Source of the DNA: Candidatus Thorarchaeota archaeon
GTDB lineage: Archaea > Asgardarchaeota > Thorarchaeia > Thorarchaeales > Thorarchaeaceae
Length of the DNA: 58,352 nucleotides
Reading direction: 5' to 3'
NCBI GenBank assembly: GCA_048884965.1
Contig: JBHLQH010000008.1
Location: 5,745-64,096, forward strand
Part shown: positions 5,457-8,493 of the stretch, in pieces
How the letters are laid out: each line of letters starts with the position of its first letter
Numbering within the stretch: position 1 is the first letter of the stretch
Made by a program: the position numbers and the translations under genes
Notes under the pieces: generated by a model
Told to the model about the DNA's origin: nothing
What the model saw: the letters and a program-made list of their open reading frames with translations, nothing else
Database searches by the model: none

Positions 5457-6011
5457 CTAGAAGTACATTCCAGCTCTCATAGGGTAGCGTTTCTTGAAGA
5501 TGCTCTGGGCGGATCTCTCAAGGGAGTCCTGTATCTTCAATACATCTGGGCTGATACTACCTAGATCTGGACGTGTGAAGACCGGGCCAGTTAGAAGGTG
5601 TTCAGCGGAAGTCCGCTCAATGTCCTTGGGTACTATTGGGTCTCTCTGAATAATGGACTCAAGATGTAACCGGGATGCTGCTGGATCTGTCATAGATTCG
5701 AGCAGTTTCTGGATATCCAGATTGTCAAGAGGACGAAGCCCATACTCGGGAGACTCGCGCAGCCTATCTATGGCAGCATTCGAGTCAGAGAGCTCGATAC
5801 CAGCCCCCGTGAACTCCATGGGATTTAGAGATATGAGTTTGAGCTGAAAAGCGGAATCAGGACCGACAACAAGCATTTCACCTCGCGGTGTGCTTAGTAC
5901 TCTCCACCCCCTGGGTGATTTGGAGTACTGACTAAGGATGCGCGGTACAATCTCATCAGCAGGTTCGATATCGGTCAATGTGCTCAATCTATCTATGAAG
6001 ATTCCTTTCAT
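5457..6011 (-). CDS. hypothetical protein
   Basis: 184-aa ATG ORF, globular composition, co-oriented with neighbours. Confidence 0.7.
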   Translation of the reverse strand: MKGIFIDRLSTLTDIEPADEIVPRILSQYSKSPRGWRVLSTPRGEMLVVGPDSAFQLKLISLNPMEFTGAGIELSDSNAAIDRLRESPEYGLRPLDNLDIQKLLESMTDPAASRLHLESIIQRDPIVPKDIERTSAEHLLTGPVFTRPDLGSISPDVLKIQDSLERSAQSIFKKRYPMRAGMYF

Positions 6012-6077
6012 ATTCTTATCGATAGAACCGGTGGCATATGGCGCGAATCAGGCAGTGATGATGAAAGGCGTTCTTAC

Positions 6078-6467
6078 TTAGGGTCGAATGGAAAGAGCTT
6101 CTCCAATAGAAGTGTTGGCTGTCAAAGCTCCTCTTACAAGACCACACTCTATACGGAGTGACTCGATGACCTCGGAGATTCTCTCCTCGATGTCATCGAC
6201 CTGTTCGTCCCAACTAATCTTTGGATCATAGAAATCCTCATAGCTGACGGTGTAGGAGAAGTTCAGTAGGATATCCCGAATCCTCACACCAACAGCCGTA
6301 AAAGTCACTCTTCGAAGGCGTTGGGGGTCATCAAGGAAAGGTCCTTTGTAGAAGTCAGGTCTGTAGGTGACCAATGCTGCTTCTCGCGCGTATTGTTCAA
6401 AATCCTCATACCTATCCAGGATTACTGGTAGGCCCATGTTATTCGTTAGCTCGTGCACGTATCTCAC
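6078..6467 (-). CDS. hypothetical protein
   Basis: 129-aa ORF; true start may be the ATG of MGLPVILD. Confidence 0.65.
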   Translation of the reverse strand: MRYVHELTNNMGLPVILDRYEDFEQYAREAALVTYRPDFYKGPFLDDPQRLRRVTFTAVGVRIRDILLNFSYTVSYEDFYDPKISWDEQVDDIEERISEVIESLRIECGLVRGALTANTSIGEALSIRP

Positions 6468-6482
6468 CGGTTCCGACGCTTG

Positions 6483-6671
6483 ACCCTCTCACCCCACCAT
6501 TTCCAGTGGAGCCAGTCGAGGGCACTCGCTTGTACAAGCCTTGCGGCCCGCATACATACCTATTATACTATGTTGTATATAAATATTTTTGTTTATTTAT
6601 TTTTATAAATATTTATCTATATAAATCAACTTGGAACACGTGTTCTAATAGAATCGAGGAGGTAAGAGGGT
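6483..6671. other. candidate replication origin: inverted ORB-like elements (6483-6512 minus, 6642-6671 plus) flanking an AT-rich stretch (6561-6626)
   Basis: GCTCCACTGGAAATGGTGGGGT on minus resembles the archaeal ORB (TCCAnTGGAAA plus G-string); weaker GTTCTAATAGAATCGAGGAGGT on plus; only 5 G/C in the 66 nt of 6561-6626. Confidence 0.6.
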
Positions 6672-6687
6672 GTGATTGTCTGAAAAA

Positions 6688-7140
6688 TTAGAATGTGTCA
6701 CAGATTCTCCTGATTCGTCCAATCTGAACCAGTTTGACATACGCAAAGTACTCAAAGAGCCTGCTAACGACTTTGGATTTTGCACGAGCGGCAATAGACA
6801 GGAAGAATGTGTATCCCTTGATCTCATGGTTCAAAGCCTTGTTGCATACGAAAATTCGTGGATCAGTGTCCTCTCTTGTCAAATCAAAGGGAGTGGCATC
6901 AGGCTCTTCATCTAGAAGGTTCGAATCAGACAACTCCTGCAACTCCGTACTGATGCCAAAACGCATCATCTCCTTGATCTTGTCCATCAGCTCTGACTCT
7001 GTTTCAGCAAGCACTGTCAGAAGAGCCTTCACTTCAGGAGTTTCGGCGGCCATTGAGGCTTTGTGGTAGTATTGATAGTGATTTGCCACCGTGGTCAAGG
7101 CCAGCTTCAGCATTTGGGTGACAGGGTTTGGTGAACTCAT
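6688..7140 (-). CDS. ferritin/rubrerythrin-like four-helix-bundle protein (degenerate metal site)
   Basis: Two helix-pair halves (PEVKALLTVLAETE; AKSKVVSRLFEYFA); paralog of 7207-7659. Confidence 0.65.
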   Translation of the reverse strand: MSSPNPVTQMLKLALTTVANHYQYYHKASMAAETPEVKALLTVLAETESELMDKIKEMMRFGISTELQELSDSNLLDEEPDATPFDLTREDTDPRIFVCNKALNHEIKGYTFFLSIAARAKSKVVSRLFEYFAYVKLVQIGRIRRICDTF

Positions 7141-7206
7141 AGGACGGTCGGTATGATTACTCTTACTTGTAGAAATGGTTTTGCATTGTAAATACGAGCG
7201 CAGGAA

Positions 7207-7659
7207 TCAGAATGTCCTGCATATTTTGCGGAGCTGCTCAATTTGATGCATCTTGAGGTAGGCGAGATACTCGAATAGGAGACTAACGACCTCGGACTTG
7301 GCCTTTGTTGCAAGATTGAGATAGAGCTTGTAGCTGTTGAGCGCCTTGTCAAGTGATTTGTTGCAGATGAAGATGCGAGGGTCAGTTTCCTCTCTGAAAG
7401 GGTCGAAGGGAGTAGGATCAGGGATCTCATCACGGTCAGGGACCTGTTTGAGCTCTTCAAGCTCGTCAAGGATCCCTGTTGCGATCATATGCTGAATTTT
7501 GGCAATCATTTTGTGCTCTGAATCAGCAAGTACGAGCAGCAGTGCCTTCACCTCTGGTAGTTCAGTCTTCTCTGAAGTTGAAACAAAGAACTCGTGTTGC
7601 GATTTGGCTGAGAGCAATGCCAGCTTCAGCATTGGGTTTAGAGATCCTGAATCATTCAA
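7207..7659 (-). CDS. ferritin/rubrerythrin-like four-helix-bundle protein (degenerate metal site)
   Basis: 150 aa, aligns without gaps to 6688-7140. Confidence 0.65.
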   Translation of the reverse strand: MNDSGSLNPMLKLALLSAKSQHEFFVSTSEKTELPEVKALLLVLADSEHKMIAKIQHMIATGILDELEELKQVPDRDEIPDPTPFDPFREETDPRIFICNKSLDKALNSYKLYLNLATKAKSEVVSLLFEYLAYLKMHQIEQLRKICRTF

Positions 7660-7711
7660 TGTTAACGGGTATGGGTATTGAAAACCAGATGATAGGAATT
7701 TCTGTCATGAA

Positions 7712-8419
7712 CTAGGGCTTCTGGAAGTCTTGGGGATTGGCCAAGTATTCGGAGAGGAGCCTATGCTCACTATCAGACATCCTGCCTTTCAAGAGAGGCA
7801 GACCATCATCAACGAAACGAATGAGTGCATAAAGATTCATACCAGCGGCTTTCGCAGCTTCTCGCGCGCCCTGCTGTCTGTCTACCAGTACAGCGATATC
7901 ATCACAGGTCGTATCTTTGATGCCACGGTTCTCAAGCTCGGCTTGCACCTGCTCACGGGCGGTAATCTTACTAGTGAGTCCTGTGACGAGATCATCAACC
8001 AAACACAGCGCATCGCCGTCTTCTAGTATGCCTTCCACGAGGGCATGTTGACCATACTCTTGCAGTGCCTTCCTGAAGTCATCAGAGGTCTTGACACCAG
8101 CTATCTTTCTAGTGTGCACGGCGGGTAGCTTCGACTCAATAGACACCACTGTCGCGATGGGGACACCAGCAAATGCAATCCCCACAAGCTTATTGACATG
8201 AGGAGCTTCCTCTCGAATCATTATGGCCATAGCATGGCCGACCTTGGATAGAGTTTCTGGGAACGAACTGATAAGACGTAGCTGAATGTAGAAAGGACTC
8301 CACAGACCAGATATGAGCTTCCAACCTTCAGGACGATCTCTTTCAGAGGTCAATAACATCCTATTCTCATAGATCTCTGTCATAATCTCCTGCTTGAGCT
8401 TGGCAATGTCTGGACTCAT
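7712..8419 (-). CDS. pyrE: orotate phosphoribosyltransferase-like protein
   Basis: LISGLWSPFYIQLR, PRPP-binding CLVDDLVTG, VLVDRQQG; ATG start at 8419 preferred. Confidence 0.8.
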   Translation of the reverse strand: MSPDIAKLKQEIMTEIYENRMLLTSERDRPEGWKLISGLWSPFYIQLRLISSFPETLSKVGHAMAIMIREEAPHVNKLVGIAFAGVPIATVVSIESKLPAVHTRKIAGVKTSDDFRKALQEYGQHALVEGILEDGDALCLVDDLVTGLTSKITAREQVQAELENRGIKDTTCDDIAVLVDRQQGAREAAKAAGMNLYALIRFVDDGLPLLKGRMSDSEHRLLSEYLANPQDFQKP

Positions 8420-8493
8420 AATCGTGTACCCGGTCAAGGTAAACACTGAAAGGCTCTTAACTTTGACCGTGAATTGGAGGTAGGCGTTGGATT

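Follow-up and report, generated by a model that had tools for sequence, protein, structure and literature searches.

A conserved origin recognition box beside a TATA box in Thorarchaeota: the geometry of an origin, the content of a promoter and no origin signal in strand skew

Introduction

Does a well-formed Orc1 box next to an AT-rich tract mark a replication origin, or can it belong to something else? The question is raised by an intergenic region of a Candidatus Thorarchaeota archaeon (genome G000; 4.09 Mb, 99 contigs, 95.7% complete), located in the window analysed here, a stretch of 58,352 nucleotides (G000:C8:5745-64096) in which the proteins neighbouring the region have database homologues labelled almost all as Candidatus Thorarchaeota. 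No prokaryotes known are more closely related to eukaryotes than the Asgard archaea, and in the literature searched no description of a replication origin or of an Orc1 site in them was found. A sequence-only reading of the region had proposed an initiator-uncoupled origin with an extended origin recognition box (ORB), based on two inverted, G-rich 30-mers (6483-6512, minus strand, and 6642-6671, plus strand) with an AT-rich stretch and a palindrome between them. Both 30-mers are present as written and match each other at 20 of 30 positions, a value reached by none of 5000 shuffles of the neighbouring 248 bp, and the AT-rich stretch (6560-6629, ~90% AT) and the palindrome GAACACGTGTTC (6634-6645) are equally there. 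The same reading had placed a change of gene orientation at the region, from minus-strand genes on the left to plus-strand ribosomal operons on the right, and was inaccurate in this detail: the genes at 6688-8446 lie on the minus strand too.

The left arm: a complete and conserved ORB

The left arm (6483-6512, minus strand) is, judged by its sequence, a genuine and strongly conserved ORB of the Orc1 type, and hence a predicted Orc1 site. It is composed of a core, TCCACTGGAAATGGTGGGGT (6491-6510), and an extra G-run, GAGAGGGT (6483-6490), and reads TCCACTGGAAA-TGGT-GGGGT on the minus strand, i.e., it has both the dyad TCCAnnGGAA and the GGGGT at fixed spacing by which an ORB is defined. Its G-string is directed toward the adjacent operon and away from the AT-rich tract, which is the polarity of the ORBs of true origins relative to theirs. 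In the whole G000 genome, the pattern TCCANNGGAAA-N2-8-GGGG has just four copies, all with the same 4-nt spacer: one at 85.6 kb and an inverted pair at 89.7/89.9 kb on contig C7, and the one at 6491-6510. When the genome was scored with a weight matrix trained solely on true-origin ORBs of other genomes, the left ORB obtained 29.2 bits and rank 3 of 8.2 million positions. The top four values (36.1, 35.7, 29.2 and 26.0 bits) comprise this box and three that mark the canonical origin on C7, the next non-origin match having 20.9 bits, so that a motif scan does place the left arm among the four best ORB matches genome-wide.

In an alignment of the module from 20 genomes (at least 15 genera), the TCCA, GGAA and GGGG blocks are invariant, with the central dinucleotide and the spacer varying, and the box is thus conserved under selection in the relatives. 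The extra G-run (GGGGT-nn-G-n-GGG) is conserved at 90% or more over the 20 genomes, which bears out the idea of an extended box as far as the tail of the left arm is concerned. A chance match was ruled out by the genome-wide matrix rank, by reversed-pattern controls and by this conservation.

The right arm and the palindrome PAL

Of the inverted pair that had been proposed, only the left member stands. The right arm (6642-6671, plus strand), which overlaps the right half of a palindrome, is a weak and lineage-specific ORB look-alike: it obtains 6.6 bits in G000 and -45 to -6 bits in the same register of 19 relatives, the range found at the flanks of any other copy of that palindrome, and its tail GGTAAGAGGGT, said to be shared with the left arm, is missing even in the closest relative. 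It was rejected as a second ORB for this lack of conservation in the 19 relatives, and around the putative unwinding element there is one ORB, where an origin of the oriC1 type has at least two in inverted orientation.

The conserved element on the right is the palindrome itself (PAL; TTGGAACACGTGTTCTAA, 18 bp, 6631-6648, both strands). It is kept at the locus in 20 of 20 relatives, in 18 of them at 121-129 bp from the ORB (123 bp in G000), and its 12-mer core occurs 10 times in G000, compared with 0.22 copies expected. In most of the family genomes that were inspected, copies of PAL stand on the flanks of the true origin as well. Three genera have PAL 70-100 nt ahead of a gene of the histone-deacetylase family (G000:C7:55296, G014:C2:412608 and G009:C54:20092), which points to a conserved promoter operator besides an origin-flanking element. 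A further copy precedes a GNAT acetyltransferase gene (C35:2375), and other PAL sites of G000 have TATA-like boxes directly downstream. The genes beside these other copies are mixed (the deacetylase, the GNAT acetyltransferase, TYW2, an S9 peptidase, an LRR protein and an ArsR-type HTH protein on C86). PAL is probably the operator of a putative dimeric DNA-binding protein. NrpR, whose operator is GGAA-N6-TTCC, was considered and discarded, given that no NrpR domain is found in the 95.7%-complete genome and that many PAL copies carry AGAAC, not GGAAC.

Two ORB loci across the family

Among 41 family genomes, the ORB pattern has 2-5 copies per genome (0-1 for the reversed control), and nearly all of them fall in two loci. 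The first (type A) is the true origin, with the order PAL, ORB on the minus strand, AT-rich gap of 121-130 bp, ORB on the plus strand and PAL, plus a third ORB ~4.2 kb away; in G000 it is at C7:89.6-89.9 kb. The second (type B) is the locus studied here, with one ORB followed by PAL, which occupies the position of the second ORB of the true origin. This 123-bp frame between the ORB and its partner, shared with the true origin, suggests that the module derives from that origin or mimics it. A strict search for the composite ORB-N110-140-PAL finds exactly one copy in each of 62 out of 85 family genomes, and outside the family the composite occurs in one of 315 genomes of the phylum. This sole exception (G164:C422:2018-2171) is nearly identical to the modules of two family members, G009 and G024, and for that reason is probably a binning artefact, i.e., a mis-binned Thorarchaeota contig. 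In two genomes both loci are on one contig, 270 kb apart in G014 and 109 kb apart in G385.

The surroundings of the module are conserved as well. A PRT-like gene, rbr150, the module, p126 and p173 follow one another in identical order and on one strand in six genera, a chromosomal synteny that led to the rejection of a mobile-element origin. The gene rbr150 (6688-7140, minus strand; ferritin/rubrerythrin-like by a weak match) is upstream of and co-directional with the operon, and ends in a T5 run just before PAL. In G000 it is one of two tandem paralogues (6688-7140 and 7207-7659, both on the minus strand) encoding a 150-aa ferritin/rubrerythrin-like protein; six relatives examined have a single match at this position, and the duplication may be specific to the G000 lineage.

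Strand skew at the two loci

Does the second locus leave the trace of an active origin? On C7 and C8, gene orientation accounts for most of the raw cumulative skew, and because of this dominance a transcription-corrected measure was used instead, namely the mean top-strand skew of the plus-strand and the minus-strand ORFs, in which the coding-strand effect cancels. In four genomes (G014, G021, G009 and G000) this measure changes sign at the true origin, and in none of the four does it do so at the locus under study. At the true origin, the AT term goes from +0.084 to -0.087 in G014 and from +0.065 to -0.064 in G021, and the GC term from +0.057 to -0.029 in G009 and from +0.067 to -0.022 in G000; across the second locus, the readings are +0.077 / +0.050 (AT) in G014, -0.080 / -0.084 (AT) in G021, +0.036 / +0.022 (GC) in G009 and +0.027 / +0.044 (AT) in G000. 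The proposal of an origin therefore fails the strand-skew check, with the true origin of each genome as the positive control. The overall skew of contig C8 in G000 is that of a typical single-replichore contig, and in G052 and G385 the skew is too weak to be read even at the true origin. G014 has both loci on one 592-kb contig, where gene orientation also diverges near the true origin. That contig (G014:C2) has a very clean AT skew, about ±40 per kb in the raw measure with a sharp switch at 378 kb, and this recommends G014 as a reference when replichores of Thorarchaeota are analysed.

Skew records the long-term average of fork direction, and rare or conditional firing is compatible with a missing switch. 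This is where an asymmetric origin of a dormant, conditional or low-efficiency kind has to be weighed, in which Orc1 would bind the ORB, a PAL factor would replace the second Orc1 across the 123-bp unwinding element, and firing would be rare or would take place just when the main origin fails. The genuine ORB with its correct polarity, the frame of the true origin, the 97% AT core, the membership of PAL in the true origin as well and the presence of two Orc1/Cdc6 paralogues in the genome all speak for it, and so do the accessory protein UBP of Sulfolobus, which binds origins and recruits MCM (PMC12141716), and the dormant origin oriC4 of Haloferax mediterranei (PMC4595724), another ORB-bearing locus without a mark in normal replication; oriC4 differs, though, in that it adjoins its own cdc6, has several ORBs and was recently acquired, whereas the Thorarchaeota module is ancient in the family, has one ORB and no initiator gene nearby. 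Weighing more heavily with us, besides the missing switch in the four genomes, is that in G014 the skew is no weaker on the stretch from the locus to the true origin than beyond the locus, which means that any firing must be rare, and a rarely used site would hardly stay so conserved over at least 14 genera. Moreover, in Saccharolobus islandicus oriC1 the loss of either inverted ORB abolishes origin activity (PMC12141716), and here there is a single one, beside an invariant TATA box and a conserved leader that indicate transcription. On balance, a dormant origin of this kind is unlikely, while deserving to be kept in mind.

The skew also gives a direction to the locus. In every genome where it is readable, the inferred fork crosses the module from PAL to ORB, co-directionally with the operon; the map order in G385, a scaffold containing Ns, suggests the opposite orientation. 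A constant orientation relative to the fork could be expected of a locus that controls the initiator or organises the chromosome, titrating Orc1 or altering its nucleotide state in the manner of the bacterial datA/DARS and their sites for accessory proteins, or, as a variant, acting as an Orc1-anchored boundary or as a loading site for single MCM hexamers. The module being single-copy and family-wide, with one ORB and a site for an accessory factor, and lying on the true-origin contig in the two genomes named above, would suit such a role. One site, on the other hand, titrates very little protein, no archaeal precedent was found in the literature searched, the map of G385 runs the other way, and the TATA box with its tight coupling to the operon is more simply read as transcription control. 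By analogy with the bacterial systems, this role can be entertained, and we consider it improbable.

Between the ORB and PAL: promoter and leader

The sequence between the two conserved elements has the content of a promoter. The box TTTATATA (6576-6583, minus strand), which is separated from the ORB by 66 bp and from PAL by 50 bp, conforms to the archaeal TATA consensus and is aimed at the adjacent gene. In the 20-genome alignment, ATATAAA is, along with the ORB and PAL, what is conserved (in at least 90% of the genomes, at nearly fixed spacing), and the conservation that had been looked for in relatives is thus found for the left ORB, PAL and the TATA box, and is absent for the right arm as an ORB. 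A Shine-Dalgarno sequence, GGTGAG (6463-6468, minus strand), and a GTG (6456-6458) that probably starts the first gene of the operon follow 108-118 nt downstream of the TATA box, and the succession of GGTGA and a start codon 5-7 nt later is conserved in relatives; in short, the TATA box is suitably spaced from the downstream gene and its Shine-Dalgarno sequence. The usual TATA-to-start distance would put the transcription start near 6552 and the ORB at about +42 to +61.

The AT-rich tract (6560-6629), earlier proposed as the unwinding element, holds this invariant TATA box, and is therefore at least partly promoter, as the sequence-only reading had allowed for in case the origin failed. Next to the ORB it does have the composition of an unwinding element: its best 40-nt window reaches 97% AT (78-97% in the 20 genomes), which equals or exceeds the values of the true origin, and its AT content is 10-17 points above the local background in most relatives, likewise to what is seen between the ORBs of the true origin. 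In two high-GC relatives the PAL-proximal half of the tract is GC-rich. A second TTTATATA (6618-6625, minus strand), semi-conserved in relatives, is 5 nt downstream of PAL and fits the PAL-then-TATA layout of the other PAL promoters. A scan for bacterial-type promoters and terminators returned nothing, and is of a type not relevant to archaea.

The operon itself (5457-6458, minus strand) has two genes, p126 (6078-6458) and p173 (5457-5978, or to 6011), whose products have no sequence match in Pfam, NCBIfam or the PDB, and whose named homologues are almost all labelled Thorarchaeota. The AlphaFold model of p126 (pLDDT 74) has eL38 for all of its four best structural matches (Z 7.2-7.8, rmsd 1.7-2.5 Å), a weak indication of an eL38-like fold; the canonical eL38 gene of G000 is elsewhere (C9:54615-54782). 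For p173, the predicted model is confident and the fold search gave no match.

Could the likeness to an ORB be a coincidence in a structured 5' leader RNA, where an upstream C-run would pair with the extra G-run, the box would form a hairpin and the operon's own eL38-like product would perhaps bind? At the predicted 5' end of the leader there is a small GC hairpin with a GNRA loop (6533-6552, minus strand; GGCC-GNRA-GGCC type), predicted by RNAalifold, three of whose four pairs have compensatory, pair-keeping changes on both sides, and the weak eL38-like fold of p126 would suit such a leader. In a structure drawn by hand, 87% of cells are paired, compared with 81% for shuffles and 46-60% for slid controls, and some pairs have changed on both sides, these pair counts being inflated because the structure was drawn from the same sequence. 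The RNAalifold consensus is weak (-6.5 kcal/mol, with a covariation term of -0.5), the fold of the G000 leader is no better than that of shuffles (z -1.3), in 35-45% of the genomes the box hairpin has its inner pairs disrupted, and an Rfam search gave no match in 6350-6800 at E up to 1 and tRNAs only in the whole window. Since a chance match of 13 fixed ORB positions at exact spacing is itself very unlikely, we give this explanation hardly any credit.

Orc1 genes and other ORB-like boxes

An orc1/cdc6 gene next to an origin is usual, not obligatory. The sequence-only reading was right that the window has none (nor has the rest of contig C8), and its absence is not special to this locus, as the true origin itself has no orc1/cdc6 within 24 kb, the distance to the nearest one. 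The two Orc1/Cdc6 paralogues of G000 are encoded at C7:10.8-11.9 kb (A) and C7:64.9-66.0 kb (B), and the genome encodes a protein of the Orc1-1 type (2qby_A, E 4e-100; 2v1u_A, E 8e-98), a close relative of a structurally characterised ORB binder (2qby_A).

Boxes of related sequence are found at three further places. At C7:12020-12075, 80-130 nt upstream of paralogue A (C7:10823-11938, Orc1-1-type), there are three tandem mini-ORBs, TTCCAGTGGAAAT, without a G-string, which probably are an autoregulatory site or part of another initiator-binding region. At G000:C66:3150-3200, the mini-ORB TTCCACTGGAAG-CAGAGGT (20.9 bits) stands ~14 nt downstream of a TATA box, at the position expected for the transcription start and 65 nt before a 241-aa gene without assigned function; across relatives this box reads TTCCAGTGGAAG-nAGAGGT, within a non-coding block that is 70-86% identical in at least seven genera. 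At G000:C1:300248-300430, an inverted pair of weak ORB-like boxes (17.7 and 16.6 bits) has 135 bp between its members and G-runs facing outward; a TTTATATA box lies 3 nt before the plus-strand one, the minus-strand one has a GGGGAGAGGGG tail like that of the ORB of the module, the pair and its spacing recur in at least nine genera, and a 52-codon ORF comes next in G000. The two conserved loci with ORB-like boxes just downstream of a TATA box, together with the mini-ORBs before orc1, support a regulatory use of ORBs in the family.

Discussion

In its geometry the locus resembles an origin and in its content a promoter, and strand skew shows no mark of replication starting there. The reading that we favour, while giving it about even chances of being correct, is that of a non-origin docking site for Orc1, which would gate the promoter of p126-p173 together with the PAL factor. 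One Orc1 monomer would sit on the ORB, with its winged helix on TCCAnnGGAA and the initiator-specific motif of its AAA+ domain on the G-string, ~40-60 nt downstream of the presumed transcription start and thus in the path of the RNA polymerase, and a dimeric factor would occupy PAL, ~50 bp upstream of the invariant TATA box. If both jointly gated the operon, its expression would follow the occupancy of the initiator, and hence the state of replication or of the cell cycle; such is the proposal. Its single ORB would not suffice for the module to fire like a regular bidirectional origin. There are points that this docking-site reading does not accommodate well: the 123-bp frame and the very AT-rich core are unneeded for a simple roadblock and fit an origin-like nucleoprotein assembly, the operon has no known link to replication, and skew leaves room for firing that is rare or conditional.

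Compared with origins of the ORB-DUE-ORB type (oriC1 of Saccharolobus, those of Aeropyrum and Pyrococcus, and the Thorarchaeota origin on C7), the module has in common with them the dyad TCCAnnGGAA, the 4-nt spacer and the GGGGT, as well as a G-string distal to the AT-rich tract, an ORB-partner distance of ~124 bp and the presence of PAL. It departs from them in having one ORB, with PAL in the place of the second, an invariant TATA box mid-way, an extra conserved G-run and no switch in skew. An Orc1-family protein acting at promoters, not at origins (as is predicted here), has its counterpart in Saccharolobus islandicus, whose Orc1-2 is no initiator but a regulator that recognises the DDRE (ANTTTC) of promoters (PMC9738581), with an activity proposed to be set by its ATP state, and a role in gene regulation has been suggested for Orc1/Cdc6 proteins at large (PMC5333045). 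Unlike the asymmetric DDRE, the box found here is a canonical, symmetric ORB with a G-string, that is, one of the type of the initiator Orc1-1.

As for PAL, the closest likeness is the ucm motif of Sulfolobus, bound by UBP at origins and at hundreds of other sites (>300) (PMC12141716). PAL is likewise a short conserved motif at the origin and elsewhere in the chromosome, and this double location implies a shared accessory DNA-binding protein. The two motifs differ in sequence, in number (~10 copies of PAL per genome vs >300) and in placement, PAL being outside the ORB pair at the true origin and ucm inside the unwinding element.

A more speculative possibility, reached by analogy and to which we assign a low probability, is a "half-origin", in the sense of a single Orc1 site and an accessory-factor site set on the frame of the true origin and serving initiator control rather than replication start. 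If that were the case, it would be an archaeal counterpart of datA/DARS, with the sensing, titration or resetting of Orc1, or a loading of MCM that is not followed by firing, as possible functions, and might be a stage on the way to the uncoupling, in eukaryotes, of origin firing from the binding of ORC.

The family thus appears to have one skew-defined origin and, no less conserved, a second Orc1 box with the behaviour of a promoter element. It follows from this second ORB, conserved and without the signature of an origin, that a full ORB alone is insufficient to call an origin in these genomes. The two loci also constitute a natural pair of substrates, one with two ORBs and the other with one ORB plus PAL on a common 124-bp frame, with which it could be probed what Orc1 needs for the loading of MCM, and whether the initiators of this lineage double as transcription regulators.
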